Below, piece by piece: positions 22,448 to 64,000 of a stretch of DNA of 64,000 bases. A program made the position numbers and the translations under genes. Origin of the DNA: Candidatus Sericytochromatia bacterium (GTDB lineage Bacteria > Cyanobacteriota > Sericytochromatia > S15B-MN24 > UBA4093). The stretch is from assembly GCA_036676985.1 (NCBI GenBank), contig JAKFBU010000027.1, positions 1-64,000 on the forward strand, given 5' to 3'. The number at the start of each line of letters is the position of its first letter. The first letter of the stretch is position 1. The notes below the pieces were generated by a model. It was not told the origin of the DNA. It did no database searches and saw only the letters and a list, made by a program, of their open reading frames with translations.

Positions 22448-22452
22448 CGACG

Positions 22453-22482: not shown

Positions 22483-22495
22483 TTGCATGGTGGCG

Positions 22496-24114: not shown

Positions 24115-24128
24115 TCGTTTGGCCGAAA

Positions 24129-24347: not shown

Positions 24348-24443
24348 GGGTCGTTCTCCTTTCGCGAGGATCGGATTGCATCTTATCTCCCCGGCACCGG
24401 TTGGCAAGGACGAAGCAGGTGTGATTCGACGGCCCATGGGAGG

Positions 24444-26741: not shown

Positions 26742-26890
26742 GGGACCTCTCTTCGCAGGGTTCCGGGAGTCGAGCCACCTCACTGTAGCCTGATTCCGGG
26801 AGCATGGCAGGGGGCTGCCTCGGGTCCCGGTGGCCGCGGATACCTGCTAAACTGGCTAAGCGACCCGTCGTCACAGGAGCCTACGCCACT

Positions 26891-28207
26891 ATGAACCCTG
26901 AAGTCTCGTCACCTGGCCGTCTTGGCCTCTTGAGCGCTGCCGGCATCGTCGTCGCCTCGATGATCGGCAGCGGCGTCTTCGTGACCAGCGGCTTCCTCGC
27001 CAAGGACCTCTCGCCGGCGGCCATCCTCGTGGGCTGGCTCATGGGCGGCGTGCTCGCGGCCTGCGGGGCCCTGTGCTACGCGGCGGTGGCCGCGGCCATC
27101 CCGAAGAGCGGCGGGGAGTACCGCTACCTGCATGACCTCTACCACCCCTATGCGGGCTTTTTGGCCGGCTGGATCTCGATCGTCTTCGGCTTCGCGGCGC
27201 CGGTGGCCATGGCCGCCATGGCCGCGGGCGCCTACGCCGAGGTGCTCGTGCGACCGGGGCTGGCGTTGCCGGTGGCGGTCTTCCTGGTGGTGGCCCTCGG
27301 GCTCGTGCAGGCCACCGGCCTGCGCTGGGGCACCCTGATCCAGAACGCGGGCGTGGTGCTCAAGGTTCTCACCATCCTGCTCTTCCTGGGCGGGGCCCTG
27401 TTCTCGGGCCTGGTGGAGCCGTCGCGGGTGCTGCCGCCCGAGACGTTCGGGCGATCGCTCCTGAGCGTTCCCTTCGCCATCGGCCAGATCTACATCGGCT
27501 TCGCCTACACGGGCTGGAGCGCGGCGGCTTACCTCGCCTCCGAGGTCAGGGATCCCGTCCGCACCGTGCCCCGCGCCATGTTCCTGGGGTGCAGCATCGT
27601 GACGATCATCTACCTGCTGTTGAACTTCGTCTTCGTCTCCACGCTGTCGCCCGCCGAGCTGCTGGATGCCGCGCGGTCCCAGACGGGATCCATCACGCTC
27701 GGGCATCTGGTGGCCGTGCGCGTGCTCGGCGCGACGGGCGGCTGGTTCGCCTCGCTGATGGTCTTCCTGGTGCTGGTGTCGACGGTCTGCGCGCTGAGCA
27801 TGACCGGTCCGCGCATCTGCGACGCCATGGCCCGTGACGGGTTCCTGCCCGCCTGGGCGCGCTGGCAGGACGGCAAGCTGGGGGGACTCGGCTCGGTGGC
27901 CCTCGTGACGGGCATCGCAGTGGTCATGCTCTGGACGAACACGTACGAGGCGATGCTGAGCTCCGTGGGCGTGACGATGGCCATCTTCGGGGCCCTGAGC
28001 GCCAGCTGCGTCCTCAAGCTCAAGGCCATGACGCCCACGCTCTGGGTGGCGCTCACGGTCTTCCTGCTCGGATTGGGCTGGAGCGTGGCGGGCAGCCTCT
28101 ACTCCAACCCCATGACCATCGTCTGGGGGCTGTTGACGGTGGGAGTCGCGACCGGCTTCTACCGGGTCGTGCGGCGTCGGCAGACGATCCTGGCGCCCGA
28201 GGCCTGA
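26891..28207 (+). CDS. APC family amino acid permease
   Basis: MIGSGVF, PKSGGEY.YL, FAYTGW, EVRDP. Confidence 0.93.
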   Translation: MNPEVSSPGRLGLLSAAGIVVASMIGSGVFVTSGFLAKDLSPAAILVGWLMGGVLAACGALCYAAVAAAIPKSGGEYRYLHDLYHPYAGFLAGWISIVFGFAAPVAMAAMAAGAYAEVLVRPGLALPVAVFLVVALGLVQATGLRWGTLIQNAGVVLKVLTILLFLGGALFSGLVEPSRVLPPETFGRSLLSVPFAIGQIYIGFAYTGWSAAAYLASEVRDPVRTVPRAMFLGCSIVTIIYLLLNFVFVSTLSPAELLDAARSQTGSITLGHLVAVRVLGATGGWFASLMVFLVLVSTVCALSMTGPRICDAMARDGFLPAWARWQDGKLGGLGSVALVTGIAVVMLWTNTYEAMLSSVGVTMAIFGALSASCVLKLKAMTPTLWVALTVFLLGLGWSVAGSLYSNPMTIVWGLLTVGVATGFYRVVRRRQTILAPEA

Positions 28208-28219
28208 CCTGGGAGCGCC

Positions 28220-29512
28220 CTAGCGCGTGGCTCTCCAGAACGCCACCATGTCCTCGACGGTCTCCTTGGCTCGCAAGAGCTTGAACTCCGGGCCCGCCGC
28301 CTCGTCGTAGCCGAGCACCGTCGGCATGCCGCGGCTGCAGTGGCGGGACCACATGCCCATGGTGTAGGCGCCCACGTCCCGGATGATCACGAGGTCGCCG
28401 GGCGCCATGTCAGGTAGGACGACGTCCTTGCCGAGGATGTCCCCCGAGAAGCACAGGGGGCCCGCCAGCGTCCAGCGCGCGGTCTCCGTCTCCGGCTTGA
28501 GGCGTCCTGCGGCGTCGCAGACCAGGAAGTCATGGTGCCAGTCCTGCGGGTGGTAGGCCCGCCGTAGCATGAAGTCCGCGCCCAGGTGCAGGACGGCGAT
28601 CCGGGTGCCGTCCAGGGGCTTCACGTACTCGACCCGGCTCGCGGCCCAGCCGCAGTTGGCCTGCATGTGCCGGCCGAACTCCGTGACGAGCCGGTAGGGC
28701 GGCGCGAAGACCGCGGGAACGGCCGCCTGCAAGGCCCGGACGTAGGTCGGCACGGACGGTGGGGTGTCCGTATCCCGGTAGGCCACGGGCAGGCCGCCCC
28801 CGATGTCGAGGGTCGTGACCCGCTTGCGGCCAAGCCGGGCGTTGACGCGCTCCACGAAGGCGTACGCCCGGCGCACGGCCTCGACGAGCATCTCGAGGCT
28901 GCAGCCCTGCGACCCCACGTGGACGTGCACGCCCGTCAGCCACTCGTAGCGCTCGAAGGCCGCGAGCAAGGCGGGATCCTCCAGGTCGAGCGGCGTGCCG
29001 AACTTGGAGGTGGCGCCCGTGACGCTCGTCGTCAGGATCCGCCCCACGCCTACCATGGGGTTGAGGCGCAGGCCGACGGTGCACCGGGTGTCCATGGTCC
29101 GGATCAGCCCGTCGATCCGCTCCAGCTCGTCCAGGTTGTCGGCGTTCAGGTGCAGGCCGTGCCGCAGGGCCATGCGCAGGTCGGACACGGACTTGGCCGG
29201 CGAGTCGAAGACGATGCGCTCGGGCGGACAGCCCGCCGCGATCGCCAGCCCCACCTCCTCGGCCGAGGCCGCCTCGAGCCCGGCGCCCCGCTCCACCAGG
29301 AAGCGCAGGATCTCGAGCAGCGGATTGGCCTTGATGGCCACCGCGTGCAGGGTGCCGTCCGGAAAGGTCTCCTGCAGCGTCTTCAGACGATCGCCCAGGC
29401 ACCCCAGGTCGTGGAACAGGAGGGCGGGTTCTTCGTCCGTCAGGCGGCCGTCGGCGACCGCGCGCTGCAGCACGCGGGCCATGGTCTCGGGAGGTAGGCG
29501 ATCGGCGCTCAT
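28220..29512 (-). CDS. Group IV (fold III) PLP-dependent decarboxylase, DAPDC/ODC-like
   Basis: AIKANP, FDSPAK, SKFG, HVHVGSQG, DIGGG, EFGR, GPLCFSGD, GAY; starts 5 nt after the ade stop. Confidence 0.88.
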   Translation of the reverse strand: MSADRLPPETMARVLQRAVADGRLTDEEPALLFHDLGCLGDRLKTLQETFPDGTLHAVAIKANPLLEILRFLVERGAGLEAASAEEVGLAIAAGCPPERIVFDSPAKSVSDLRMALRHGLHLNADNLDELERIDGLIRTMDTRCTVGLRLNPMVGVGRILTTSVTGATSKFGTPLDLEDPALLAAFERYEWLTGVHVHVGSQGCSLEMLVEAVRRAYAFVERVNARLGRKRVTTLDIGGGLPVAYRDTDTPPSVPTYVRALQAAVPAVFAPPYRLVTEFGRHMQANCGWAASRVEYVKPLDGTRIAVLHLGADFMLRRAYHPQDWHHDFLVCDAAGRLKPETETARWTLAGPLCFSGDILGKDVVLPDMAPGDLVIIRDVGAYTMGMWSRHCSRGMPTVLGYDEAAGPEFKLLRAKETVEDMVAFWRATR

Positions 29513-29517
29513 GGGGC

Positions 29518-31239
29518 TCAGGCCAGGACCGGCACGACCTCGAAGCGGTGCACGTCCACGTAGCCCCGGTCCGTCAACTTCAGCTCGGGGATGACGGACA
29601 GCGCCAGAAAGGCGAGCGTCATGTAGGGGTGCTCGACCCGGATGCCGAGGGCTGCCCGCGTCCGCGCCTGGAGGGCCTCGACCAGCTCGGCCACCCGGGC
29701 CATGGGCTGGTCGGACATGATGCCGCCGATGGGGAGTGGCAATAGCTCGACCACCTGACCGTCCTTGACGGCGCACAGCCCGCCCTGGCTCGCGACCAGG
29801 GCCTCGACGGCCGCGCGCATGTCGCGATCGTTGGTGCCCATGACCACCAGGTTGTGGGCATCGTGGGCCACGGTGCTCGCGATGGCGCCCGACTGGATTC
29901 CGAAGCCCTCGACGAAGCCCACCCCCACGTTGCCCGTGGCGTGGTGCCGCTCCACGACGGCAATCTTGGCGATGTCCTGGGCGGGGTCCGGCTGGAGGTC
30001 GCCGTCCTGGACCGGCAGGTCCCGCTCGAGGGAGTGGGACCAGCACTGGTCGGGTACCACGCCGATGACGCGGGCGCGCACGGCGGAGAGGCCGGCGGGG
30101 CCGGGCACCCGGAAGGCGTCGTCCGTCAGGGGCGCGATCCGCACCGTGTCCCGCACGGTGGCCGGTGCCTCGCCGGAGGCCTCGAAGAGCGGGCGACCCT
30201 CGCGGGCCACCACCCGACCGCGCTTGAGGACGGTCTCGATGCGCAGGCGCTCGAAGCCGTCCGCGATGACCACGTCCGCCTGCCACCCCGGAGCGATGGC
30301 GCCCACGCGCTCGAGCTGGAAGTAGCGGGCGCAGTTGATGGTCGCGAGCTTGACGGCGAGCACGGGGTCCATGCCGTGGGCGATCGCCTTGCGCACCGCA
30401 TGGTCGATGTGCCCGTGCGTGACGAGGTCGTCCGCGTGCCGGTCGTCCGTCACGAACATGCACCGCTCCTGGCTGATGGGCGAGACGGCGCCCAGGAGGT
30501 CCACCAGATTGCGGGCGACCGAGCCCTCGCGGATCATGACGTGCACGCCGAGCCGGAGCTTCTCGCGGGCCTCCTCGACGGTACGGCACTCGTGGTCGCT
30601 GGAGATGCCCGCCGCCACGTAGGCGTTCAGGTCCTTGCCCGTCAGGTCCGGCGCATGGCCGTCCACCAGGAGGTTCGCGAAGCCCAGCTTGGCCATGACC
30701 TCGGGATCCTGCTGGAGAACGCCCGGGAAGTTCATCATCTCGCCCATGCCGAGCACCTGGGGCTCCGCGAGCAGGGGACCGAGGTCCTTGCTGTCCAGGA
30801 TGGTCTTGGCCGACTCGAAGGGCGAGGCGGGCACGCACGACGGCAGCATCAGATAGACGTCGAGGGGCAGGCCCTTGGCGTCGTCCAGCATGAAGGCGAG
30901 GCCCGGCACGCCGCAGACGTTCGCGATCTCGTGGGCGTCGATGATGACGCTGGTGGTGCCGTGCGGCACCACCGCCTGGGCGAACTGGCTGGGGGTACAC
31001 ATGCTCGATTCGACGTGGACATGCCCGTCCAGGAAGCCCGGCATGACCAGGCGTCCGGTGGCGTCGATGACCGCGAGGCCCTTGTAGCCCGCGCCCACCG
31101 CCGCGATGCGGTCGTCCACGATGGCCACGTCCGCGGGGTACACCTCCCCGGTCAGGACGTTGACCACGTGGCCGCCCCGGATGACCAGATCCGCGGGGCG
31201 TTCTCCGCGCGCGACGGCGATGAGCGATTGCAAGTCCAT
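29518..31239 (-). CDS. ade: Adenine deaminase
   Basis: PGFLDGHVHVESS, HEIANV, GEMMNFPG, DGHAP, SDHEC, IREGS, TDD, STVAHDAHN. Confidence 0.96.
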   Translation of the reverse strand: MDLQSLIAVARGERPADLVIRGGHVVNVLTGEVYPADVAIVDDRIAAVGAGYKGLAVIDATGRLVMPGFLDGHVHVESSMCTPSQFAQAVVPHGTTSVIIDAHEIANVCGVPGLAFMLDDAKGLPLDVYLMLPSCVPASPFESAKTILDSKDLGPLLAEPQVLGMGEMMNFPGVLQQDPEVMAKLGFANLLVDGHAPDLTGKDLNAYVAAGISSDHECRTVEEAREKLRLGVHVMIREGSVARNLVDLLGAVSPISQERCMFVTDDRHADDLVTHGHIDHAVRKAIAHGMDPVLAVKLATINCARYFQLERVGAIAPGWQADVVIADGFERLRIETVLKRGRVVAREGRPLFEASGEAPATVRDTVRIAPLTDDAFRVPGPAGLSAVRARVIGVVPDQCWSHSLERDLPVQDGDLQPDPAQDIAKIAVVERHHATGNVGVGFVEGFGIQSGAIASTVAHDAHNLVVMGTNDRDMRAAVEALVASQGGLCAVKDGQVVELLPLPIGGIMSDQPMARVAELVEALQARTRAALGIRVEHPYMTLAFLALSVIPELKLTDRGYVDVHRFEVVPVLA

Positions 31240-31405
31240 GGGGCCCTCCTGACGGTGAGCGAAGCTGTGCTCGGCTTCCTCCATGGTGCCCCATCCGTCG
31301 GCATTTGGCACCCCCCTGAGGAAGAAACGTTCGGGCGGCGCTTGGAGAGCGAGTTGCAGGATGATAGTTTAGGAGCTAAACTTTTCGACCGGAGGATGAA
31401 GCGCC

Positions 31406-31828
31406 GTGGTGTTACCCCTCGACGAACAGATCTTGGCCTTGTTCCGGCTCACCAGGAGCCGGATTCAGGCCGTTGCGGAGAGCCACGAGCTGACGTACCA
31501 GCAGTTGGTGGCGCTGCGGCATCTGCTCAAGGCGGGATCCATCACCATGTCCGACCTGACGGATCGCGTGGGCGTGACGCGGGGGGCCATGACGGGCCTC
31601 GTCGACCGGCTCCAGGAGGCCGGACTCGTCACGCGGCGGCACTGCGAGACGGATCGCCGCGTCACCTTCCTGGATCTCACGCCACGCGGCCACGAGGTGC
31701 TCGACGCCGTCCAGGATGCCTGGCGCCGGGAGACCAAGCGTTGGCTCGCAAAGCTGGAGCCCGAGGAGCGTGAGGGCTTGTCGCAGGCGCTGGGGCGCCT
31801 GCTGGAAGTAGGGATGCAAGGTGAATAA
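31406..31828 (+). CDS. MarR family transcriptional regulator
   Basis: MTGLVDRL..AGLV.R....DRR...L.LT..G. Confidence 0.92.
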   Translation: MVLPLDEQILALFRLTRSRIQAVAESHELTYQQLVALRHLLKAGSITMSDLTDRVGVTRGAMTGLVDRLQEAGLVTRRHCETDRRVTFLDLTPRGHEVLDAVQDAWRRETKRWLAKLEPEEREGLSQALGRLLEVGMQGE

Positions 31829-33410
31829 GAATGCCGTGATGGGCAGCGTCCTGCTGGCCCTGATCCTGGCGGCCCTGAACCAGACCATGGTCAGTACGGC
31901 CATGCCGCGGATCGTCGCCTCCTTGGGCGGGATGACCCTCTACAGCTGGGTCTTTACGGCCTACATGCTCGCTGCGACGGTCTTCGTGCCGATCTTCGGG
32001 AAGCTCTCGGATCTGTTCGGCCGGCGGCCCCTGATCCTCGGCGGCATCTTCCTCTTCACGCTCGGCGCCTTGCTGTCGGGCATGGCCCAGGACATGACCC
32101 AGCTCATCCTCTTCCGGGCCCTGCAGGGACTCGGGGCGAGCGCCATGATGCCCGTGGCGTTCGCCGTGGTGGCCGACCTCTACCCGCCTGCCGAGCGGGG
32201 CAAGTCCCAGGGGCTCATCGGGGCCGCCTTCGGCGTGGCGAGCCTCATCGGCCCGTTGGCGGGCGGCTGGATCACGGATAATTCCTCCTGGCGCTGGGCC
32301 TTCTGGGTCAACGTGCCGGTGGGCCTCCTGACGTTCGTGTACTCGTACTACGTCCTGCCGCACAAGCAGCGCGAGCATGGCGCCGTCAGCATCGACTACC
32401 TGGGAGCCCTCTTCCTGGTGCTTGCCGCCACTCCCTTGCTGTTGCTGGCGAGCTTCGGCGGGCGGGAGTTCGCCTGGCTCTCACCCGCGAGCCTCGGGCT
32501 CATGGCACTGGTCTTGGCGAGCAGTATCGCCTTTGTGTGGACCGAGCGTCGCGCCAAGGATCCCATCCTGCCCCTGGCCCTCTTCCGGAACCCCATCTTC
32601 ACGGTCTCGGTGACGGCCTCTCTGCTCATCGGCGTCATCATGTTCGGCAACACCATGTTCATCCCGCTCTTCGTCCAGGGCGTCATCGGGACGTCGGCCA
32701 CCGCGGCGGGCATGGTCCTGACGCCCATGATGCTCAGCAACGTCGCGGGCAGCATGATCAGCGGCAACCTCGCCTCGCGCACGGGGCACTACCGTTGGCT
32801 CGCCATTTCCGGCCTCGCCGTGATGGTCATCGGCGCGTTCTTGCTGACGCGGATGTCCGAGGCGACGTCCAGCGTTCAGGCGCTCGTCAACATGGTCGTG
32901 GTGGGCTTCGGGCTGGGCGCGACCATGCCCATCTTCGTGCTGGCGGTGCAGAATGCGGCCCCGCCGCAGCTCATCGGGGCGGTCACGTCGCTGATCCAGT
33001 TCTTCCGCACCATGGGCGGCACGCTCGGCGTGGCGATCCTGGGCGGCATCCTGACGCACCACACGACGAGCGAGCTCCACGAACGCTTCCCGGCGCTGCC
33101 GGCGGACCGGATCCCGAATCCTCAGGTCCTGCTGTCCCCCGAAGCGATCGGCCGGCTGCCGGCAGAGCTCGTGGAGGCGCTGCGCTCCGTGCTGATGCAC
33201 GGGCTGCACCACGTCTTCCTGTACGGTCTGGGCATCACGGTGGCGGGCTTCGCCATCACGCTCTTCCTCCAGGAGATCCCGCTGCGCAAGGTGGCGCGCC
33301 CTTCGATCGAGGAGGCCACCGAGGAGCTGGCGGCCGAGGGCATGCCGGGCATGGTCCTGCGTCCCGAGGACGAGCCGGACCTGACGGGACGGACGGAGAA
33401 CGGGCGCTAA
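31821..33410 (+). CDS. MFS DHA2 (14-TM) drug efflux transporter
   Basis: QTMVSTAMP, GKLSDLFGRR, RALQGLG, GPLAGG, WRWAFWVNVP; overlaps marR. Confidence 0.95.
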   Translation: MNKNAVMGSVLLALILAALNQTMVSTAMPRIVASLGGMTLYSWVFTAYMLAATVFVPIFGKLSDLFGRRPLILGGIFLFTLGALLSGMAQDMTQLILFRALQGLGASAMMPVAFAVVADLYPPAERGKSQGLIGAAFGVASLIGPLAGGWITDNSSWRWAFWVNVPVGLLTFVYSYYVLPHKQREHGAVSIDYLGALFLVLAATPLLLLASFGGREFAWLSPASLGLMALVLASSIAFVWTERRAKDPILPLALFRNPIFTVSVTASLLIGVIMFGNTMFIPLFVQGVIGTSATAAGMVLTPMMLSNVAGSMISGNLASRTGHYRWLAISGLAVMVIGAFLLTRMSEATSSVQALVNMVVVGFGLGATMPIFVLAVQNAAPPQLIGAVTSLIQFFRTMGGTLGVAILGGILTHHTTSELHERFPALPADRIPNPQVLLSPEAIGRLPAELVEALRSVLMHGLHHVFLYGLGITVAGFAITLFLQEIPLRKVARPSIEEATEELAAEGMPGMVLRPEDEPDLTGRTENGR

Positions 33411-54042: not shown

Positions 54043-54158
54043 CGCGTGGCCGGGTATCCTGCTTGCTGCTCCGGACCGTGCCCGGTCTCGTGTTATAGAT
54101 CGACCGGCGATGGGGAACGCCGAGCGTATCGATCGCTCGCCAGCAAGTGAGGGGGCGC

Positions 54159-56918
54159 ATGATGCGGACCGGGGTCACGACGGACCAGCTCGAGGGATGC
54201 TTCGAGCGGGACTTCCGATTCCTGCTGGACACGTTTCGCGGGTTGCTCGAGGGCCTCGGGGAGCCCCTCGTCCGCTACCTCCCGTGGCAGGGGCGCCCGC
54301 CCGACGTGGCGGACGTGACCTGGCTCCAGGACGCCGAGCGACTCATGCAGCTGCATTCCATCTCTTTCTCGCTGCTCAACCAGGCCGAGGACAGCGCGTC
54401 CGTCGAGGCGCGGCGCCAGCGCGAGGCGGTGGAGGGCATCGGCCAGGAGCCGGGCCTGTGGGGGCATGCCCTGAAACGCATGCTAGCGGCCGGGCTCGAA
54501 CCGGCCCGGATCGCCGATGAGCTCGCCCTGCTCTGGGTCGAGCCCGTGCTCACGGCGCACCCGACCGAGGCCAAGCGGGCCACCATCCTCGAGCACTACC
54601 GGGATCTCCATGGCCTCTTGATGGAGCGCATCCATCCCATGACGCCGCTCGAGGATCGCGACAACCGGGACCGGACCGGGCGCGTGCTCGAACGCATCTG
54701 GCGCACGGGCGATATCTTCCTGGAGAAGCCCGACGTGGCCTCGGAACTGAGGAACGTCCTCTACTACCTGCGGGAGGTCTTCCCGTCGGCCGCGGCCGTC
54801 ACGCGCCGACGGCTGCGGGTCGCCTGGGAGGAGGCGGGGCTCGATCCGGCGACCCTGCACGTCATGCCGCTCCTGTCCTTCGGGGACTGGGTCGGGGGCG
54901 ATCGTGACGGCCACCCGCTCGTGACCGCCGAGGTCACGCAGGGGACCCTGCACGAGCTGCGCCTCAACGCCCTTGTCGGGATCAACCGGCAGCTCAACGA
55001 TCTCGCCGAGCACCTGAGCCTCTCGGCTCGCCTGCAGGAGCCCCCTCCCCCCCTGGTCGCACGGATCGAGACCCTCAAAGAGCAGCTTGGAGCCAGAGGC
55101 CTCCAGGCCATCGAGCGCAACCCGGAGGAGCCGTGGCGCCAGCTCCTGAACCTCATGATCGCGCGGCTGCCCGTGGACGTGGCGCGCCGCCATGCGCTCA
55201 AGCTCAACGAGTTCGAGGGATCCTACCGTTTTGCCGACGAGCTGATGCTGGATCTGCGTCTCTTGCAACAGTCGCTGTGCGTGGTGGGGGCGTCACACCT
55301 CGGCGAGGCCGAGGTCCAGGACACCCTCGACTGGCTGCGGGCGACGGGGTTCCATCTGGCCGCCCTGGACATCCGCCAGAACAGTCGGTTTCACGACAAG
55401 GCCGTCGCCCAGCTCCTCTTGGCGGCCGGGCTCGACGGCACGGGTTACGCCGAGTGGCCGGAGGAGCGCCGTCTTGAGTTCCTGAACGCGGAGCTCCGCT
55501 TCATGCGCCCGTTTGCCCTGTCTTCCCGCTCCATCGGTCCCGAGGCCGACGCGGTGCTCGGCACCTATCGCGTGCTGGCCGCCCATGCCGACCGCTACGG
55601 CCGCGAGGGTCTGGGGGCGCTCATCGTGAGCATGACGCGCGGCCTCTCGGATCTGCTGGCGGTCTACCTGCTCGCCCGAGAGACGGACCTCGTGACCTCC
55701 GGCCCGGATGGCCTGGCCTGCAAGCTGCCCATCGTACCGCTCTTCGAGACCGTCGACGACCTGGAGCGAAGCGCCGGCATCATGGCCGCCTTCCTCGCCC
55801 ATCCCATGACGCGCCGCAGCATGGCCTACCAGGTCGGGACGGTCGGGCAGGATCGCCCCATGCAGCAGGTGATGGTCGGCTACAGCGACAGCACCAAGGA
55901 CGGCGGCATCCTGGCGGGACAGTGGCATCTGTATCACGCCCAGGAGGCCCTGACGGAGGTGGGACGCCAGGCGTCGGTGGTCATTCGCTTCTTCCACGGG
56001 CGAGGGGGGACCATCAGCCGTGGGGCCGGCCCCACCTATCGCTTCTTCGACGCCCTTCCGCCGGGATCCGTGCAGGGAGCCATCCGCATGACCGAGCAGG
56101 GCGAGACCATCGCCCAGAAGTACGGCAACCTTTCCCAGGCCGCTTACAACCTGGAGCTCCTCATGGCCAGCGCCGCCGAGGTCTCCTTCCTCAAGGAGCG
56201 ACCCGCAGCCCTCGAGCCAGACGTCGCATCGGTCATGGAGCGGCTGGCCGTCCTGAGCCGGGAGGCCTACGAGGCCTTGATCCGCGACCCCGGCTTCATG
56301 ACGTTCTACTCGCAGGCCACGCCCATCGACGCCATCGAGGAGAACCGGATCGGCTCGCGGCCGTCCCGGCGCACCGGGCTCCGGACGCTAGCGGACCTGC
56401 GGGCCATTCCCTGGGTGTTCAGCTGGTCCCAGTCGCGCTTCCACCTGCCGGGCTGGTTCGGGGTCGGCACCGCCCTCGAAACCTTGAAGCGAACGGACCC
56501 GGGGGTGTTCGAGACCCTGCGCACCCGGGGCATGCAGTGGCCGTTCCTCGCCTATGTCCTCACCAACGTCGAGACGAGCGTCAACACGGCGGACCTGCAG
56601 GTCATGCGGCAGTACGCGGCCCTGGTGGCGGACGCGGCGGTCCGCGAGCGCCTCATGGGCGTCATGGAGGCCGAGTACGAGCGGTGCCGCCGTCTCCTCC
56701 AGGAGCTGTTCGAGACGCCGTTCGCCGAGCGCCGCCCCCTGCTCCACCGCTCGTTCGAGCTGCGCGCGGAGCCCCTGCGCTTCCTGCACCGCCTTCAGAT
56801 CGAGCTGTTGCGCGAGTGGCGCGCCTTCGACCGGAAGGGCCCGGCGGAGGATGCCGCGCTGCGGCGGGTCATGATGTCCCTCAACGCGATCGCGAGCGGC
56901 CTGCGCTCAACGGGCTAG
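54159..56918 (+). CDS. ppc: Phosphoenolpyruvate carboxylase
   Basis: VLTAHPTE, WVGGDRDG, QQVMVGYSDSTKDGG, FHGRGGTISRG, TEQGE, LRAIPWVFSW, C-terminal RSTG. Confidence 0.97.
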   Translation: MMRTGVTTDQLEGCFERDFRFLLDTFRGLLEGLGEPLVRYLPWQGRPPDVADVTWLQDAERLMQLHSISFSLLNQAEDSASVEARRQREAVEGIGQEPGLWGHALKRMLAAGLEPARIADELALLWVEPVLTAHPTEAKRATILEHYRDLHGLLMERIHPMTPLEDRDNRDRTGRVLERIWRTGDIFLEKPDVASELRNVLYYLREVFPSAAAVTRRRLRVAWEEAGLDPATLHVMPLLSFGDWVGGDRDGHPLVTAEVTQGTLHELRLNALVGINRQLNDLAEHLSLSARLQEPPPPLVARIETLKEQLGARGLQAIERNPEEPWRQLLNLMIARLPVDVARRHALKLNEFEGSYRFADELMLDLRLLQQSLCVVGASHLGEAEVQDTLDWLRATGFHLAALDIRQNSRFHDKAVAQLLLAAGLDGTGYAEWPEERRLEFLNAELRFMRPFALSSRSIGPEADAVLGTYRVLAAHADRYGREGLGALIVSMTRGLSDLLAVYLLARETDLVTSGPDGLACKLPIVPLFETVDDLERSAGIMAAFLAHPMTRRSMAYQVGTVGQDRPMQQVMVGYSDSTKDGGILAGQWHLYHAQEALTEVGRQASVVIRFFHGRGGTISRGAGPTYRFFDALPPGSVQGAIRMTEQGETIAQKYGNLSQAAYNLELLMASAAEVSFLKERPAALEPDVASVMERLAVLSREAYEALIRDPGFMTFYSQATPIDAIEENRIGSRPSRRTGLRTLADLRAIPWVFSWSQSRFHLPGWFGVGTALETLKRTDPGVFETLRTRGMQWPFLAYVLTNVETSVNTADLQVMRQYAALVADAAVRERLMGVMEAEYERCRRLLQELFETPFAERRPLLHRSFELRAEPLRFLHRLQIELLREWRAFDRKGPAEDAALRRVMMSLNAIASGLRSTG

Positions 56919-56997
56919 CTGGCTCGCTTGACCGCCGTTCGGAAACGTGGGCTAATGTGCCTGCTTTCCACGGCTGCGCTTGTTCAAGGAGGTGTCC

Positions 56998-57393
56998 ATG
57001 AGCTTTCACACCAACATTCTGCAGGCCGCCCGCGACAACGGGTACTTCCGCAAGGAGCTCCACACGACGGAGCGATCGCAGGTGGTCGTCATGAGCATCG
57101 AGCCGGGCGACGACATCGGCGCCGAGGTCCACGACCTCGACCAGGTGCTGGTCTTCGTCGCGGGCACCGGCGAGTTCCAGGTGGGCGACCAGAAGGGCAA
57201 GGTCTCTCCCGGTGACGTGGTCGTCGTCCCCGCCCATGCGGAGCACAACTTCGTCAACACGGGCCGGGAGCCCATGAAGCTCTTCACCGTCTACGCGCCT
57301 CCCGAGCACGCCCCGGGGACGATCCACCGGACCAAGGCCGAGGCGGAAGCGGCCGAGGCAGAAGAGCACGGCCGAGAGCACGCTCGTCACTAG
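56998..57393 (+). CDS. Cupin domain protein
   Basis: SQVVVMSI.PG..IG.EVH..DQ, EHNF.NTG, YAPPEH. Confidence 0.9.
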   Translation: MSFHTNILQAARDNGYFRKELHTTERSQVVVMSIEPGDDIGAEVHDLDQVLVFVAGTGEFQVGDQKGKVSPGDVVVVPAHAEHNFVNTGREPMKLFTVYAPPEHAPGTIHRTKAEAEAAEAEEHGREHARH

Positions 57394-58448
57394 CGCGCGC
57401 GTTCGCCCGACGTCACTCCTGTAGCGCCCTGTCGTCCGGCAGGGCGTTCGGGGTTTCGCAGCCAGGCGATGGTGTCGCGGAGCGTCTCGTCGGCCGGGCG
57501 AGCCCGGAAGCCCAGGTCCGGCTCGGCATACAGGGATCGCAGCCCCCAGTGGCGCGCGCCCATCTCGAGGACGACCGGGTCCGGTAGCAGGTGCAGGGCC
57601 CGCTTGCCGAGTGTCTGGTTGAGCATCGCGAGCGCCCACACGAGCCCGCTCGGCGCGTACCAGCGCGGCAGGGGCACCTCCCCGAGCCTGGCGACCATGC
57701 CGAAGAAGTCCGCGAGCGTGCTCTGGCAGCCCGGCGTGTGGTACACGGGCCGCGGCTGCGGGATCTCGAGGGCCCTGACGAGAGCCGGAGCGAGGTCCCG
57801 GATGTCCACGAAGTGCATGCCACCCCTCAGCAGGAAGGGGACGCGGCGCCGGAGGACCCGCGTGACGTTGCTCGTCGAGCGGGCGCGGTGGTCCCGGGGG
57901 CCCAGCACGACCGGCGGCCGGATGATCACGAGCTCCACGCCGAGTTCCCCGGCCAGTTTTCGTGCGGCCGCTTCGGCCTGAATCTTGGAGTGGTAGTAGG
58001 GCCAGTCTTTAACTAGCTCCGTGCAGTAAGGCGCTTCCTCGTCCGCCCGGCTCTCCTGCTCCTTGAAACAGCCGACGGTGCCCGAGGTCGAGACGAACAC
58101 CAGCCGGCACCGGTAGCGGGCCGCGAGCCGCACCATGGCGAGCGTGCCCTCGACGTTGGTGCGGATCATGGCCTCCGGCGACCGGCGGCTGTGCTGGACG
58201 ACGGCCGCCAGGTGCAGGATGCCGCCGAGCCCGTCGAGCAGGGGATCCGTGCCCCACCCGGACGTCTCGAGCAGGCCCCCTTCGATCGCGGGCACGGGAC
58301 CCAGGTCCTGCTGCCAGGACGTCGCTTCCCAGGTCGCGCGATCGCGCACCAGGGCGACGGGCTTCCACGAGGGCTCGCCCTGGAGCGCCTCCAGCACGTG
58401 GCGGCCGAGAAAGCCGCTCGCCCCCGTGATCAGCAGCGGCCGGCTCAC
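57390..58448 (-). CDS. NAD-dependent epimerase/dehydratase (extended SDR)
   Basis: GTG overlapping the upstream TGA; ITGASGFLG, HLAA, NVEGT, VSTS, YYHSK. Confidence 0.9.
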   Translation of the reverse strand: MSRPLLITGASGFLGRHVLEALQGEPSWKPVALVRDRATWEATSWQQDLGPVPAIEGGLLETSGWGTDPLLDGLGGILHLAAVVQHSRRSPEAMIRTNVEGTLAMVRLAARYRCRLVFVSTSGTVGCFKEQESRADEEAPYCTELVKDWPYYHSKIQAEAAARKLAGELGVELVIIRPPVVLGPRDHRARSTSNVTRVLRRRVPFLLRGGMHFVDIRDLAPALVRALEIPQPRPVYHTPGCQSTLADFFGMVARLGEVPLPRWYAPSGLVWALAMLNQTLGKRALHLLPDPVVLEMGARHWGLRSLYAEPDLGFRARPADETLRDTIAWLRNPERPAGRQGATGVTSGERAR

Positions 58449-61117
58449 CGGACCACCTCGGCCACGGCCGGCGTCGCGACCCACTGGATCTCCTCGCCCG
58501 GCCAGCGACAAGCGTCGGCATGGGCCGGGAGCGCCCGGGCCTCGGGGCCCCAGGTGTAGGCGCCGCCCTCGAGGACGAGGATCCCGCGCTGGACCATGTC
58601 GTCGAGGGCCGCCTCCACCTCGGGCCGGAAGGCCGTCGGAAGGGCTGCGAGCACGTCCCGCACCCCGCAGCGCAGGTCCCGGTCCAGGAAGGCCCCCAGG
58701 TAGCGGGCCACCTCCGCGTGGTCCCGGCACACCGGCTCGAACAGGGCGCGCAGGAGCGCCCCCGGCACGGGCTCCGCGCCGGGTACCCGCGCCGCGTAGC
58801 CGTTTCGAGCCACGTGGCTGCGGATCACGGGATGCTCGGATAGCTGGCGAACGGCATCCGCGTAGAAGGCATGCTCCCACTGCTGGCGCAGGCTGCGCTC
58901 CTGCAACGGATCGGCCGCCTCCTTGAGGGGCAGGACGCTGTCGAGCACCGGGACCCCGCGTGCTCGGAGCAGGCGGGCCAGGTCGCGGACCTGCAGCCCC
59001 GTCTCCGGGTGTGCGGAGAGGAACGCCCGCAGATGATACTCCGTCGCCACCGACGCCGCCTGCAGCTCGCCCATGACCGCCCGGCTCAGGTCCGGTACGT
59101 CCGTCTCGGGCCCGAGCGTGAGGGGCCGGCCGCAGGCTACGTGGACCCGGCCAAGCCGCACGTGGCCGCGCCACAGGTGACCGAGCCACTGGAGCACGGG
59201 GCCCAGGCGGTGGGTCGTGTCGGAGCCCCCGCGCAGCTCGCGCAGGAACGCCGCCTCCTCGGGGATGCGGTCATAGCTGATCATGACGGGCAGGATGCGA
59301 CAGGGCTGCTGGGTGCCTTGCAGGGCCCGCAGGAGGCCGCGCCGGGGTGCCAGGAACCGGCGCGAGCGGCTGCGCGTTCCCTCGATGAAGAAGGTCAGGG
59401 CCTGACGCCGCGTCACCAGCTCACCCACGCGGCGCGTGAGCTCCGGGTCCTCGCGGCCCAGGCCGCGCTTGATGTAGAAGGCCTGAGCCCAGCGCAGCAG
59501 CTCCCCGAGGAGGGGGATGCGGGCGAAGTCCTCGGTGGCCGCGATGTGCGGCAGCGGGAGCTTGAGGTCGGGCCAGGTGAAGAAGAGGTAGGGGCTGATG
59601 AGGAAATCCGCGTAGCTCCGGTGGCTGGGCACGACGACGAGCAGCTCGTCGGGACTTGCCCCCTCCATGGCGGCCTGGAAGGAGGCCTTGTCGACGGTGA
59701 CCAGGTCGGTGCCGCGCCGGAAGGCCTTGCGCAGGAGGAAGCCGAGCACCCGGTGCGTCGCGTTCCCGTTCGGCTGCCTCAGCGCCCAGAGGAGGTCGCC
59801 GCCCGAGGCCTGGTGCTGCTTGCCGCCCATCGACACCTGGTCTTCGCCGCGGCGCAAGAGGTGCCGGTGGATGCCGCGGGCGATCGTCTCGAAGTAGGCC
59901 ACGGTGTCGAAGGTCGGATCGTGCCGGGTATCCGACGATCGGAAGTCGAAGGTGCGGTGCGTGAAGTACCGGAAGCCCCGATTCAGGTAGAGCAGCCCGC
60001 CGAGCAGACGCTTCAGGGCCCGGGCCTGCTTCTTCTGGCCGAAGAGGGTGGCCGCGGCGAGGGCCGTGCCCCATTTCAAGCGGTGGTGAACGAACTCCAG
60101 CACGTGCAGCCGTGCGTTCGCGGGGCCCACGTGCACGAAGCCCGCCCGCGGCCCCACCGGAAAGCGATCGAAGTAGGGGACGTGGACGTCGCAGATCTGG
60201 CGGATGGTGAGCGCGCGCGCGAGGCCCGCCACCGCGTAGCGGATCCGCACCTCGTCGGTGCTCGGCGCGTCGAAGGCCGCGTCGAGCACGCGCTCGGCGA
60301 CCTCGTCGCACGGCACGATGTCGAGCCGGACGTCAGGATCGACGCCCAGCACCCGGAGGTAGCCCATGCCATACAGGGCCACGAAGCCCGCAAAAGCCGC
60401 CTTGCTGTCGATCCAGCCTGCGAACGGGAAGCGTCGGCACGCCGAGATGATGCTCGGCCGCACGATGGTCAGGGGCACGTGGCCGTGCCGGGCGACCAGG
60501 AGGTGCTCGGCGATGCACTTGGTGAGCGTGTAGGTATTCGCATGGCCCGAGGCTGCGAGCATGGCGGTCTGGCTCGCCGTCCCGTCGAGGATGCTCCGGT
60601 AGGCGTCCTCGGCCGACAGGGGCAGGGGGGCGAGTTCTTCACCGAAGGCGCGCGTGCCTCCCGGATGGGGAGAGACATAGGCGGTCGAGACATCGACCAT
60701 GGCCCGCAGCTGAACGCAGCCCTTGGCGAACTCCAGGACGTTCAGGGCGCCCGTGATGTTGGATTCCGCCGCCTCGGGCAGCGGCAGGTCGAAGTCCACC
60801 GAGGCCGCGCAGTGGATGACCCGGTGCACGTTCTTCTGGAGAAGCTCGCGATCGCCCCCCGAGAGGGCGAGATCCGCGGCCGTCAGGTCGCCCGCCACGG
60901 GCCGGCACCATGTGGACCAGTCCTCGGGCAAGAGCCGAAAGCACTCGGAGGACACGATCTCCTGCTCGAAGCGCTCTTCCGGCGTGCGGCCGCGCTTGGG
61001 GCGGATGAGGACGTAGACGGTCCCGAGGCCCAGCTCCTCGCGCCGGCGCATCAGCTCGGCGAGGACGACCTTGCCGACGAAGCCCGTGCAACCCGTGACG
61101 AACAGGGTTTCCCCCAT
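58445..61117 (-). CDS. Fatty acyl-CoA reductase fused to a GNPAT/GPAT-type acyltransferase
   Basis: N-terminal VTGCTGFVGK, HCAASVDFD, VSTAYV, NTYTLTK, RPSII; C-terminal PSHRSYADF (HxxxxD), AFYIKR, FFIEGTRSR. Confidence 0.9.
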   Translation of the reverse strand: MGETLFVTGCTGFVGKVVLAELMRRREELGLGTVYVLIRPKRGRTPEERFEQEIVSSECFRLLPEDWSTWCRPVAGDLTAADLALSGGDRELLQKNVHRVIHCAASVDFDLPLPEAAESNITGALNVLEFAKGCVQLRAMVDVSTAYVSPHPGGTRAFGEELAPLPLSAEDAYRSILDGTASQTAMLAASGHANTYTLTKCIAEHLLVARHGHVPLTIVRPSIISACRRFPFAGWIDSKAAFAGFVALYGMGYLRVLGVDPDVRLDIVPCDEVAERVLDAAFDAPSTDEVRIRYAVAGLARALTIRQICDVHVPYFDRFPVGPRAGFVHVGPANARLHVLEFVHHRLKWGTALAAATLFGQKKQARALKRLLGGLLYLNRGFRYFTHRTFDFRSSDTRHDPTFDTVAYFETIARGIHRHLLRRGEDQVSMGGKQHQASGGDLLWALRQPNGNATHRVLGFLLRKAFRRGTDLVTVDKASFQAAMEGASPDELLVVVPSHRSYADFLISPYLFFTWPDLKLPLPHIAATEDFARIPLLGELLRWAQAFYIKRGLGREDPELTRRVGELVTRRQALTFFIEGTRSRSRRFLAPRRGLLRALQGTQQPCRILPVMISYDRIPEEAAFLRELRGGSDTTHRLGPVLQWLGHLWRGHVRLGRVHVACGRPLTLGPETDVPDLSRAVMGELQAASVATEYHLRAFLSAHPETGLQVRDLARLLRARGVPVLDSVLPLKEAADPLQERSLRQQWEHAFYADAVRQLSEHPVIRSHVARNGYAARVPGAEPVPGALLRALFEPVCRDHAEVARYLGAFLDRDLRCGVRDVLAALPTAFRPEVEAALDDMVQRGILVLEGGAYTWGPEARALPAHADACRWPGEEIQWVATPAVAEVVR

Positions 61118-61121
61118 GGTC

Positions 61122-62936
61122 CTACACCGTTTCCTTCCCGGCGGCATGGAGGTTTCCGGCGCCGAACACGTTCTGCGGATCGAGGGCTTCCTTGGCGGCC
61201 TGGACGCCGCGCAGGGCCGCGGGCGACATGATGCGCGGCAGGAACTCCTGCCGGAGCTTGCCGACTCCGTGGTGATGGGACAGCGAGCCGCCGTTCGCGA
61301 GGACCTCCTCGCGGGCCGCCACCTCGATCGCGTGGTAGGTGCCGCTCGGGTCCTCGACGCCCTGGTAGCCGTAGGCGAAGTAGAAGTAGACGGCCGCCCC
61401 CGTGTCGTAGACCTGGGTGACCCGGCACGAGATGAAGGGCTTGCCGGGCAGGTGGCGGGCCGCATGCTCCTTGGCGATGCGCTGCTTGACGTTGGCGCAG
61501 AGGCCGGCGACCCGGCTCCAGGGCACGGACGTCTCGAAGGACTCGGCGAGGAACCAGTGGTTCATGACGAAGTCCCGGATGTAGGCGATGCCGTAGGTCA
61601 GCTGGTAGCCTCGCTTGCCGTTGTCGGGGCCGGCCTTCATGCCGCCATGGCGCTTGGCGAGCTCGTAGACGAGCGCCTCCTGCTGGGCGACCTCGGTCCG
61701 GGAGCCTTCGAACACGAGCGTGCAGGCGACCATGCGGTCCGGCTCGAAGCCGAGGACCTTGGTGACGAGCACCTTCTCGAGCTTGCTCTTGAGGGCCTTG
61801 AAACCCTTCGAGACGGGCTTGAGGGCGATACCGAACTGGAACTGCAGGTTGTCGACCAGGCGGACGCTGGCAGGGGCCCGGCCCGTCTGGGCGAGGTCGT
61901 ACATGAAGCGGGTGCCAGCCTCGAAGTCCTTGAAGAGCACCGAGCCGAACTTCTGGACCTCGGGCAGCGGAAACAGCTTCACGACCGCCGAGGTGATGAT
62001 CCCGAGGTTGCCTTCCGAGCCGAACCACCAGCGTCGGGGATCCAGCCCCGTCGACTCGCGGGGCAGGGCCGCATGCCGCTCGATCTTGCCGAGGGACGTG
62101 ACGGCCGTGAGGTCGAGGACCAGGTCCTCGATGTTCCCGTAGCGGTTCTTCTTCATCCCGCTCGCATGGGTCGAGATCCAGCCCCCCAGGGTCGAGAACT
62201 CGACGGAGTCGGGCTCGTGGCCCATGGTGAACCCGTACTCGGCCAGCTGCTGCATGATCGTCCGGCCCACCGCGCCTGCCTGGATGCAGGCCATGCGGTT
62301 GATGGGATCGATCCACAGGATGCGGTTCATGCGGCGCGTGTCGAGCGAGACGATGACGCGTTGCTCGTCCGCCGGGCAGCGGAGCGCCTCGGTGACGTTG
62401 GTGCCGCCCCCGAAGGGGATGATCGAGGCGCCGTGACGCTTGGCAGCCTCCACGACGGCCACCACCTGGTCCTCGTCGGTCGGGTACACGACGACGTCCG
62501 GCACGCGCGGCAGCCTGCCGTGCTTGATGGCGAACATGTCCGCCTGCGTGTGACCGTGACCGTGACGCAGGCGCACCTTGGGCTCCTGGCTGATCTGGTC
62601 CTCCGACAGCGCGCTCCGCAACTCGGCGAGCAGCCCGGGCGCGGCCTTGGGCTCGGGAATGGCCGGGGGGTAATGGGGCTCATGCCGATCGTCCGGCTCG
62701 ACCGGGAGCCCCACGACGCCCCGGAACCAGGGCAGGAGGTTGGGAAGCTCGTGGCCGCTGAGATCGGGGTAGCGCTCGCCCGTCACCTCCACGTGCCCGC
62801 GGGCGTTGACGCGAAAGGCCGTGTCCCGGAAGCCCCAGACGTCCAGGCTCTCCTCGTCCCGAGGCTCGGCGGGCGGCGGCGGCGGGTAAAGACGCCCTTG
62901 GTGCGAGGCGTCGGCGAGGTTGGTGGTCGAGTTCAT
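61122..62936 (-). CDS. agps: Alkyl-dihydroxyacetonephosphate synthase (AGPS/ADPS, FAD-dependent)
   Basis: HGHT, PFGGGTNV, GHEPDS.EFSTLGGWIST.ASGMKKN.YGNIED, GY.LTY.IAYIRD, ESFETS, CRVTQ.YD.GA..YFYF, SHHHGVGK. Confidence 0.92.
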   Translation of the reverse strand: MNSTTNLADASHQGRLYPPPPPAEPRDEESLDVWGFRDTAFRVNARGHVEVTGERYPDLSGHELPNLLPWFRGVVGLPVEPDDRHEPHYPPAIPEPKAAPGLLAELRSALSEDQISQEPKVRLRHGHGHTQADMFAIKHGRLPRVPDVVVYPTDEDQVVAVVEAAKRHGASIIPFGGGTNVTEALRCPADEQRVIVSLDTRRMNRILWIDPINRMACIQAGAVGRTIMQQLAEYGFTMGHEPDSVEFSTLGGWISTHASGMKKNRYGNIEDLVLDLTAVTSLGKIERHAALPRESTGLDPRRWWFGSEGNLGIITSAVVKLFPLPEVQKFGSVLFKDFEAGTRFMYDLAQTGRAPASVRLVDNLQFQFGIALKPVSKGFKALKSKLEKVLVTKVLGFEPDRMVACTLVFEGSRTEVAQQEALVYELAKRHGGMKAGPDNGKRGYQLTYGIAYIRDFVMNHWFLAESFETSVPWSRVAGLCANVKQRIAKEHAARHLPGKPFISCRVTQVYDTGAAVYFYFAYGYQGVEDPSGTYHAIEVAAREEVLANGGSLSHHHGVGKLRQEFLPRIMSPAALRGVQAAKEALDPQNVFGAGNLHAAGKETV

Positions 62937-63100
62937 GGAGGTCCTGTCATGGCGGCCGCGCCGTGCGACGAGGTGGGCCGTCGTCGGCGGCTACCGAGCA
63001 AATTCTTAACTATGCGATAGCGAATAGATTAGACATTGTTAATATATACTGGAGTCTAAAAGGTTGCACGTCAACTGTTGGGAAGGCCGGAGCACAAGAC

Positions 63101-64000
63101 ATGACTCTCCTGGGGATGCGCAGCGAACTGACGTCGAACGTGCTCTGGACCTTCCTGGGCATCCTCGTGCTGCACGTCGCCGTCACGCTGTCACCGACCG
63201 TGATTCGCCTGTTCCGCCCGGGGGGGGACTTCCGGGACTTCCACCGGAGGGCGCTCGGATGGTGGGTCGTCTCGGGATCGCTCGTGCTGGCCCTTGCGCT
63301 CGGCCCCTACGCCGCGCTCTTCTTCTTCGCCGCCGTCGGCTTGACGGCTTACCGCGAGCTGCTGGCGATCCAGCCCTTCGCCTTCAAGCGGGCCACCGTC
63401 CTCGTCGTCGCCGGTCTTATCGCGGTGCCCTACCTGATGATTCTCGCCCGACTGCCCGAGGCGGCGTCTTCCGGCGCCGCGGTCTGGTGCCTGCTCGCCA
63501 TTCCCCTCGTCGTGATGCTGCTCGAGCCGGGGGAGGGCTTCGCCCGCAAGGCCGGCGCCCTGTTGATGGCCTGGCTCGTGGCCGGCTACTGTCTGAGCCA
63601 GGTGCCCGCGCTCATGTGGCGAGCCGAGCCCCTGAATCCGGCGGGCGGCGGGGTGGGGCTCGTCATCTACATGGTCTTCCTCGCCCAGTTCAACGACTTT
63701 GCCCAGTACGTCTGGGGCAAGGTGGCGGGTCGCACGCCGATCGTGCCGGCGCTCAGCCCCAAGAAGACCTGGGCCGGGTTCCTGGGGGGGCTCCTGTCCA
63801 CCGCGGGCCTGGCCTGGCTTCTGGCCCCGGTGCTGACGCCCGTGCCGCGCGAGGTGGCCCCGCTCATGGGCATCGTCGTGGCAGCTGCGGGCTTCCTCGG
63901 GGACATCACGGTCTCGGCGATCAAGCGGGACGCAGGGGTCAAGGACGCCGGCAAGCTCCTGCCCGGCTTCGGCGGGGTCATGGACCGCGTTGACAGCCTC
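63101..64000 (+). CDS. cdsA: Phosphatidate cytidylyltransferase (runs off the window end)
   Basis: Not in the ORF track. ATG 63101 after GGAG; multi-TM; QFNDFAQYVWG, SPKKTWAG, GD..SAIKRD.GVKD.G.LLPG.GG.MDR.DS. Confidence 0.92.
   Translation, partial: MTLLGMRSELTSNVLWTFLGILVLHVAVTLSPTVIRLFRPGGDFRDFHRRALGWWVVSGSLVLALALGPYAALFFFAAVGLTAYRELLAIQPFAFKRATVLVVAGLIAVPYLMILARLPEAASSGAAVWCLLAIPLVVMLLEPGEGFARKAGALLMAWLVAGYCLSQVPALMWRAEPLNPAGGGVGLVIYMVFLAQFNDFAQYVWGKVAGRTPIVPALSPKKTWAGFLGGLLSTAGLAWLLAPVLTPVPREVAPLMGIVVAAAGFLGDITVSAIKRDAGVKDAGKLLPGFGGVMDRVDSL

Follow-up and report, generated by a model that had tools for sequence, protein, structure and literature searches.

We describe here a divergent gene cluster of a Candidatus Sericytochromatia bacterium that encodes a predicted pathway for ether-lipid synthesis. 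The analysed DNA, called the window throughout, is a stretch of 64,000 nucleotides at the start of contig C27 (JAKFBU010000027.1; 297 kb) from a metagenome assembly (GCA_036676985.1, genome G000) of 4.68 Mb, rated 100% complete with an estimated contamination of 5.09%. At the right-hand end of the window, two operons point away from each other. The left operon encodes an alkylglycerone-phosphate synthase (AGPS), a fusion of a fatty acyl-CoA reductase (FAR) with an acyltransferase (FARAT) and an extended short-chain dehydrogenase/reductase (SDR), whereas the right-hand operon starts with a cdsA paralogue and continues beyond the window. We consider it probable that the cluster provides a bacterial, oxygen-compatible route from dihydroxyacetone phosphate (DHAP) to ether lipids, that the right-hand operon carries the ether-linked phosphatidate onward, and that the operon was acquired horizontally.

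Gene content of the divergent cluster

AGPS, the first gene of the left operon (61122-62936, minus strand, 604 residues), ends with a TAG stop codon at 61122-61124. The protein combines the Pfam domains FAD_binding_4 and FAD-oxidase_C, and a PDB search aligned its residues 31-596 with guinea-pig AGPS (4bby; E 2.7e-175, 587 bits). Dictyostelium AGPS (2uuu) scored 281 bits (E 1.4e-82), and the next-best family, glycolate oxidase, reached an E-value of 4e-30 only. The motifs GHEPDS (239-244), GGW (251-253), MKKN (261-264), YFYF (517-520) and HHH (554-556) align with 4bby. Tyrosine 517 of the YFYF motif, which we take from the guinea-pig AGPS structures to be an active-site residue, aligns with a tyrosine in 4bby that is a phenylalanine in the variant entry 4bca, and HHH 554-556, presumably a functional loop as well, aligns with the HHH of 4bby. 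The protein thus has the architecture, the full-length similarity and the motifs of EC 2.5.1.26, and the acyl/alcohol exchange itself is predicted.

A gap of 4 nucleotides (GACC) separates the AGPS stop codon from the ATG (61117) of FARAT (58445-61117, minus strand, 890 residues). One open frame joins an NAD_binding_4 domain (residues 7-275, E 1e-58) to an Acyltransferase domain (490-614, E 8e-17). The reductase half carries the motifs GCTGFVG (9-15; GxxGxxG) and YTLTK (196-200; YxxxK), the acyltransferase half HRSYAD (499-504; HxxxxD) and EGTRSR (579-584; EGxRSR). Because the best NCBIfam match of the C-terminal half is PlsB (E 1e-28, under its cut-off), we assign this half to the glycerol-3-phosphate acyltransferase/DHAP acyltransferase (GPAT/DHAPAT) type and not to the PlsC type. 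Relatives in the PDB are the fatty acyl-CoA reductase 7eoz and GPAT chains, and the domain arrangement is that of a FAR-GNPAT fusion.

The stop codon of FARAT (TGA) and the GTG start codon of SDR at 58448 overlap as GTGA. SDR (57390-58448, minus strand, 352 residues), a candidate 1-alkyl-DHAP (keto) reductase, matches the Pfam families Epimerase (PF01370, E 4e-28), NAD_binding_4 (E 1e-18), 3Beta_HSD and GDP_Man_Dehyd, with no classical short-chain dehydrogenase family among its Pfam matches. It carries the motifs GASGFLG (9-15) and YYHSK (151-155), and the solved structures closest to it are those of carbonyl reductases (3wj7, dihydroflavonol 4-reductase, ketoreductase, cinnamoyl-CoA reductase), not of sugar epimerases. 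Scanning 56800-63300 for sigma-70 promoters and terminators revealed no promoter-like site and one terminator-like site, located inside FARAT, which is fewer than in shuffled sequences. An Rfam scan of the window gave zero matches.

A locally AT-rich region of 164 nucleotides (62937-63100), whose position points to a promoter role, separates AGPS from cdsA. Blocks including AAATTCTTAA and AGATTAGA are kept in G001, a genome of the same genus, and the flanks diverge. The cdsA paralogue (CDP-diglyceride synthase family; 63101-64051, leaving the window at 64000; plus strand, 316 residues) is best started at ATG 63101, as the protein aligns with its same-genus homologue from residue 1 and the upstream DNA diverges. 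CdsA matches CTP_transf_1 over the Pfam cut-off (E 8e-49 to 8e-51) and has the C-terminal SxxKR and DRxDS stretches. Its gene is overlapped at the end by that of a PssA-like CDP-alcohol phosphatidyltransferase (C27 64042-64698; CDP-OH_P_transf) with the motif DxxDGxxAR...GxxxDxxxD at residues 68-93, which is 38% identical to a paralogue clustered with the only Psd of the genome. The adjoining gene (C27 64692-65918) encodes an MFS-like membrane protein of 408 residues that has no Pfam match; a protein atlas score of 0.98 for MFS transporter serves as a lead that it may belong to this group. The desaturase gene (C27 65951-67015) encodes a DesA-like membrane fatty-acid desaturase with the histidine boxes HDCGH, HNWHH and HHVHH, matching FA_desaturase (PF00487) only. 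The score of the protein for the nearest NCBIfam family, Delta5 desaturase DesA (NF052548), is 163 bits and falls short of the equivalog cut-off of 500; it is classified more generally as a membrane fatty-acid desaturase. It was also rejected as a CarF/PEDS1 protein, since it matches PF00487 and not PF10520.

G001 shows the identical seven-gene divergent layout at 59-87% protein identity. Almost identical DNA is present in metagenomes from soil, the source possibly being among them, and in metagenomes that a second study obtained from groundwater. One contig of this second study, 3,087 nucleotides long, covers 60501-63587 with 7 differing letters and connects FARAT through AGPS and the intergenic region to cdsA. 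Shared by G001 and spanned by the contig of the second study, the gene layout is no assembly artefact. All reading frames of the cluster are intact, and its G+C content (0.69-0.72) resembles that of the rest of the window, so that nothing points to a very recent arrival. The first-pass annotation of the window had described the coupled AGPS, FAR-acyltransferase and extended SDR genes and the divergent cdsA, and these coordinates hold; the AGPS motifs it quoted as matching the animal enzyme are all present and align with 4bby, and the pgsA-like gene to be sought beyond 64000 was found as the CDP-alcohol phosphatidyltransferase following cdsA.

Distribution and ancestry of the operon

Scanning one genome per species revealed at least 571 stretches that encode AGPS relatives, the best 80 of which (L001-L080) were compared as cross-phylum loci. 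FARAT directly follows AGPS in 46 of these 80 loci (AGPS identity 59-69%). SDR comes third in 33 of the 46; 5 are too short to tell and 8 have room but no SDR match, so that SDR occupies this place in 33 of the 41 AGPS-FARAT loci with room to show it. Among the remaining loci, AGPS is directly followed by SDR in 3 and by neither gene in 27, and 4 end at AGPS. The loci are labelled as Gemmatimonadota, Myxococcales, Acidobacteria/Terriglobia, Nitrospira, Woeseiaceae, Thermoleophilia, Gammaproteobacteria, Sericytochromatia and others, with some automatic labels looking unreliable; the Myxococcales-labelled loci in the AGPS clade of the window show 60-64% identity. In a protein database, 8,000 candidates were scored, of which more than 5,000 were AGPS relatives at E <= 1e-20; in many cases, the source gives the name alkyldihydroxyacetonephosphate synthase. 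Homologues of agps in metagenome-assembled genomes (MAGs) of many phyla have already been reported (PMC11868695, PMC13159169 and a 2026 preprint on sponge symbionts). The AGPS-FARAT-SDR operon is widespread in bacteria, and the window holds an ordinary new copy of it with a local right-hand operon.

Within the class, we surveyed 47 genomes from 27 genera. AGPS of the window type occurs in 14 of them (7 genera), and full-length FARAT in 15, namely these 14 and one genome that is 84% complete. Of 13 class loci, 11 have all three genes in order and 2 are cut by contig ends. The right-hand genes have a narrower range. The MFS protein was found only in G000 and G001, and its relatives are absent from the five genomes nearest by AGPS. 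Orthologues of the desaturase occur in 3 of the 47 genomes, G000, G001 and G027, the last of which belongs to a different family of the class, and adjoin a cdsA of the window type in all three. In G000 and G027, the cdsA-desaturase pair shares a contig with FARAT, at most 6 kb away from it. In G001, where the AGPS gene is split between contigs, FARAT is carried by the other contig, on which AGPS continues. At the G027 locus by FARAT, cdsA and the desaturase are 51% and 53% identical to their window counterparts. FARAT is present twice in this genome, at 50% and 49% identity to that of the window: on C468 (L138, 12.3 kb), it stands beside MFS, cdsA and desaturase genes with no AGPS, and on C287 (L001), it comes after AGPS. 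Two metagenome scans for further right-hand operons, for which the queries were the MFS protein and a CdsA alignment, confirmed no relative.

In phylogenetic trees, the AGPS sequences of the class fall into at least three well-supported groups, and the window AGPS pairs with a Gemmatimonadaceae-labelled locus (Shimodaira-Hasegawa-like approximate likelihood ratio test, SH-aLRT, 98). The class FARATs form the same three groups, and a single clade was rejected by the approximately unbiased (AU) test (p 0.0012). Window FARAT groups with the Gemmatimonadaceae-labelled locus at SH-aLRT 83, inside a clade supported at 95 that includes G027; the FARAT tree has long branches and was built after the AGPS tree had been seen. 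G000, G001 and G027 are the genomes whose AGPS and FARAT cluster together in the trees. Together with the patchy distribution, the FARAT and AGPS groupings suggest horizontal spread of the operon among bacteria, and it probably reached the lineage of the window by transfer among soil bacteria. In a literature search, we found no publication that connects gemmatimonads with both agps and ether lipids.

We also compared the window AGPS with eukaryotic enzymes by bit scores against two solved eukaryotic AGPS, the trees covering bacterial sequences. In the same clade, an AGPS labelled Myxococcales, whose genome also has CarF, scored 595 bits against the guinea-pig and 308 bits against the Dictyostelium enzyme, as compared to 587 and 281 bits for the window AGPS. 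Being no closer to animal AGPS than the myxobacterial protein, the window AGPS adds nothing special on eukaryotic origin. All 120 AGPS relatives listed are bacterial or metagenomic. According to PMC13012113, eukaryotic FARAT and PEDS1 derived from Myxococcota, bacterial FARAT relatives exist in GTDB and include a collapsed, all-bacterial clade of 361 sequences, and AGPS carries no phylogenetic signal. As judged from these comparisons, the operon of the window leaves the picture of the origin of the eukaryotic pathway unchanged. The first-pass annotation was right in placing the cluster in a non-myxobacterial lineage, as the class sits in the Cyanobacteriota/Melainabacteria group per NCBI; its claim that the cluster bears on the origin of the eukaryotic pathway is not supported, given the wide distribution of the operon and the AGPS comparison.

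G000 contains a second AGPS-like gene (C23:177269-178954, L100:7267-8955; minus strand) that is 33% identical to that of the window and flanked by a glycerol-kinase-like gene (FGGY) and a glycerol-3-phosphate dehydrogenase-like gene (DAO and DAO_C). For its product, Dictyostelium AGPS gives the higher score (430 bits, as compared to 300 bits for the guinea-pig enzyme), the reverse of the window AGPS. The second type occurs in 15 of the 47 class genomes, and at the thresholds used both types are found together only in the genus of the window; a GlpD-like gene adjoins the second-type AGPS in 5 of 6 relatives examined. Each of the two bacterial AGPS types may be nearer a different eukaryotic AGPS, which could explain why AGPS trees are hard to resolve. 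Stand-alone FAR genes, about 50% identical to the FARAT half, are present in the class genomes G005 and G008, and stand-alone acyltransferase-half genes (40-44%) in G028, G029, G040, G042-G046 and G048-G050. Some class genomes with split FAR or acyltransferase genes have the second AGPS type only, and split versions of the ether-lipid pathway may exist in such genomes.

Proposed pathway and its alternatives

In the DHAP route of animals, FAR supplies a fatty alcohol, DHAP is acylated, AGPS swaps the acyl for the alkyl group, and the keto group is reduced. By homology, the N-terminal half of FARAT should turn acyl-CoA into a fatty alcohol, its C-terminal half should place an acyl group on DHAP to yield 1-acyl-DHAP, and the flavoenzyme AGPS should exchange the acyl group for the alcohol, giving 1-O-alkyl-DHAP. 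SDR would most likely reduce the C2 keto group to form 1-O-alkyl-glycerol-3-phosphate. The sn-2 position should be acylated by one of the six other acyltransferase-family genes of the genome, all located outside the cluster. Judging from the gene neighbourhood, the cdsA paralogue would convert the ether-linked phosphatidate into a CDP-activated lipid, and the PssA-like transferase would then add serine; the single Psd, encoded on another contig, could give the ethanolamine lipid. The MFS protein may move the lipid or a lysolipid, and the DesA-like desaturase would introduce a double bond into the chain. The roles given by the first-pass annotation to SDR, as the alkyl-DHAP reductase, and to cdsA, as the activator of ether-linked phosphatidate, are both plausible.

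The products should be of the alkyl (plasmanyl) type and not plasmalogens, because a search of G000 for CarF/PEDS1 (PF10520), the genome-wide carF/TMEM189 check put forward by the first-pass annotation, found no family member. The positive control worked, as the same search matched 2 of 4 Myxococcota genomes. The genome also has no second frame joining reductase and acyltransferase domains in the manner of ElbD. Owing to these two negative results, the operon looks like the only aerobic ether-lipid route of the organism.

Several observations weigh against this reading. The sequence of FARAT does not distinguish DHAP from glycerol-3-phosphate as acceptor, and its operon with AGPS is the sole argument for DHAP; we know of no diagnostic sequence feature for this choice. 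SDR lies outside the branch of the known eukaryotic acyl/alkyl-DHAP reductases (EC 1.1.1.101; PexRAP/DHRS7B, Ayr1), which we take to be classical SDRs, and could reduce a fatty aldehyde instead. Regarding the right-hand operon, CdsA reaches 96 bits against NCBIfam NF008635, whose equivalog cut-off is 385, and the best NCBIfam scores of the PssA-like protein are 72 bits for archaetidylserine synthase (cut-off 200) and 66 bits for pssA (cut-off 107). The right-hand genes of G027 do not include the CDP-alcohol transferase, and an unrelated MFS gene lies in between on the opposite strand. Because G000, G001 and G027 share one operon ancestry, the cdsA/desaturase linkage has to be taken as a single evolutionary case, maintained to protein identities as low as about 50%. 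For the horizontal origin, a single class clade on AGPS alone was not rejected (p-AU 0.148). The case for this organism is made from sequence throughout, and the related operon of Myxococcus xanthus is, by the published account, a minor contributor to ether lipids, deletion of its AGPS gene MXAN_1676 causing a slight fall (PMC9131029). Finally, relatives of cdsA, the CDP-alcohol transferase, the MFS protein and the desaturase occur near none of the 80 other AGPS loci, 56 of which extend at least 3 kb upstream.

This last result also favours the alternative that survives best, in which the cdsA/PssA-like/MFS/desaturase operon is a mere neighbour serving diacyl phospholipid synthesis or remodelling. 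A second cluster of cdsA, desaturase-family and PssA-like genes lies by Psd on C23, far from any FARAT, showing that such modules exist without ether-lipid genes, and the region contains accessory genes such as a second PEP carboxylase copy. However, the cdsA and desaturase orthologues are confined to the three genomes of the sub-clade and always lie close to FARAT, even in a different family at about 50% identity, and the short region between the divergent operons, which both of them share, is conserved in the genus. Taken together, we regard a mere neighbourhood as possible, albeit not the likelier explanation, and favour a function of the right-hand operon in carrying ether-linked phosphatidate onward.

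The second alternative concerns SDR, which might catalyse an aldehyde-to-alcohol step or reduce another carbonyl, with the keto reduction being encoded elsewhere. The matches of SDR to NAD_binding_4 and to the thioester-reductase subfamily and the cinnamoyl-CoA reductases among its solved relatives are consistent with such a function, as is the description of the known eukaryotic reductase PexRAP as a different kind of enzyme (PMC9131029). Conversely, FAR domains of characterised FARAT proteins are described as yielding the alcohol unaided (PMC13012113), whereas the pathway needs a keto reductase, and no unassigned reductase other than SDR is conserved in the operon. Moreover, dihydroflavonol reductase and ketoreductase are closer to SDR than the CoA reductases. 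An aldehyde or other carbonyl substrate therefore appears doubtful, and the position of SDR and its carbonyl-reductase relatives make it reasonably likely that the enzyme reduces the C2 keto group of alkyl-DHAP.

It is also conceivable that the products are not membrane phospholipids but ether lipids of a neutral or signalling kind, for instance alkyl-diacylglycerols resembling TG-1 or free alkylglycerols. M. xanthus is described as making the neutral ether lipid TG-1 (PMC9131029), and head-group genes are missing from the neighbourhood of most bacterial copies of the operon. In the genus of the window, however, the operon faces the phospholipid enzymes CdsA and CDP-alcohol phosphatidyltransferase, and we judge neutral or signalling end products to be unlikely here, keeping ether phospholipids as the expected outcome. 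A far-reaching version of the phospholipid route would be a dedicated line in the sub-clade of G000, G001 and G027, in which the desaturase makes a vinyl-ether or other ether-chain-specific double bond and thereby replaces CarF/PEDS1. If so, the sub-clade would own a CDP-activating enzyme for ether lipids, the genus of the window also a serine transferase and an MFS lipid transporter, and the DesA-like protein would represent another aerobic plasmalogen desaturase, unrelated to CarF/PEDS1; we consider this very unlikely. That the cluster is foreign to the organism through binning contamination, or inactive, can practically be dismissed: the metagenome origin and the estimated contamination of the assembly allow for it, yet the contig is 297 kb long, the G+C content is the usual one of the window, the frames are intact, an independently binned genome of the same genus has the matching layout at 59-87% protein identity, and contigs of two studies cover the cluster.

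Two further features of the genome were described alongside. G000 has three cdsA copies, that of the window, one following pyrH and frr on C30, which is likely the housekeeping copy, and one in the C23 cluster. The latter cluster (about 21600-32100; L101:1600-12076; minus strand) joins phospholipid head-group genes with isoprenoid genes and comprises, in this order, PPDK-like, small FA_desaturase_2-like, cdsA, desaturase/hydroxylase-family, PssA-like, Psd, prenyltransferase-like and HMG-CoA reductase genes. The desaturase/hydroxylase-family gene is nearest to GntB and CrtR, under their cut-offs, and the prenyltransferase-like gene scores 162 bits against NF010118 (cut-off 443); nothing in the genome exceeds the cut-off of the PcrB/GGGPS family. 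Adjoining the left operon, the window encodes a phosphoenolpyruvate (PEP) carboxylase (54147-56918, plus strand) that is a second copy, 38% identical to the family-typical enzyme on C1, with a 63% relative in one family member only (G008). Because it is itself a second, patchily distributed copy, this gene is useless as an anchor for an empty site.

Significance and comparison with known systems

With this cluster, non-photosynthetic relatives of cyanobacteria join the bacteria that are probably able to make 1-O-alkyl glycerolipids with oxygen present, which is relevant when tracing the sources of alkylglycerol biomarkers in soil and groundwater. The private cdsA, the PssA-like transferase and the desaturase next to the operon suggest how ether-linked phosphatidate might be routed into phospholipids apart from the diacyl lipids. 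The operon family is already known; to it are added a further host class and a lineage-specific head-group/desaturase operon. Our literature searches gave no report of an ether-lipid pathway in Sericytochromatia, although the class may be listed in the taxon tables of PMC13012113 or among the MAGs tabulated for PMC11868695. In sum, the biochemical reading of the first-pass annotation is largely sound, whereas the significance it attached to the cluster was overstated.

The three-gene entry module proposed at the outset has its counterpart in M. xanthus, where, as described in PMC9131029 and PMC13012113, MXAN_1676 encodes AGPS, MXAN_1675 a fusion of FAR with a GNPAT-like domain and MXAN_1674 a protein of the NAD-dependent epimerase/dehydratase family. 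Compared by this published description, both operons share the three gene products, their order and their location on one strand, and the chemistry expected is the same DHAP route to 1-O-alkyl lipids. Unlike in M. xanthus, the host is a member of Sericytochromatia in which no CarF/PEDS1 or ElbD-like protein was found, and a divergent cdsA/PssA-like/MFS/desaturase operon is attached. The peroxisomal pathway of animals (FAR1, GNPAT, AGPS, PexRAP) resembles that of the window in having a full-length similar AGPS with the YFYF and HHH motifs kept, as well as FAR and DHAPAT-type domains. It differs in that FAR and acyltransferase are fused in the window, the reductase candidate is an extended SDR and not of the PexRAP type, and neither a peroxisome nor PEDS1 is involved. 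The FARAT proteins of Tetrahymena, Dictyostelium and other protists, as described in PMC13012113, share the arrangement of an N-terminal FAR and a C-terminal GNPAT-type acyltransferase; in this likeness by architecture, the FARAT of the window stands apart as a bacterial, operon-encoded protein. Most similar are the AGPS-FARAT-SDR operons of uncultured bacteria, which have AGPS proteins at 59-69% identity and the AGPS-FARAT order in 46 of 80 loci. What sets the window apart from these is the combination of its type of cdsA and a DesA-like desaturase beside the ether-lipid genes, an arrangement seen in G000, G001 and G027 only.

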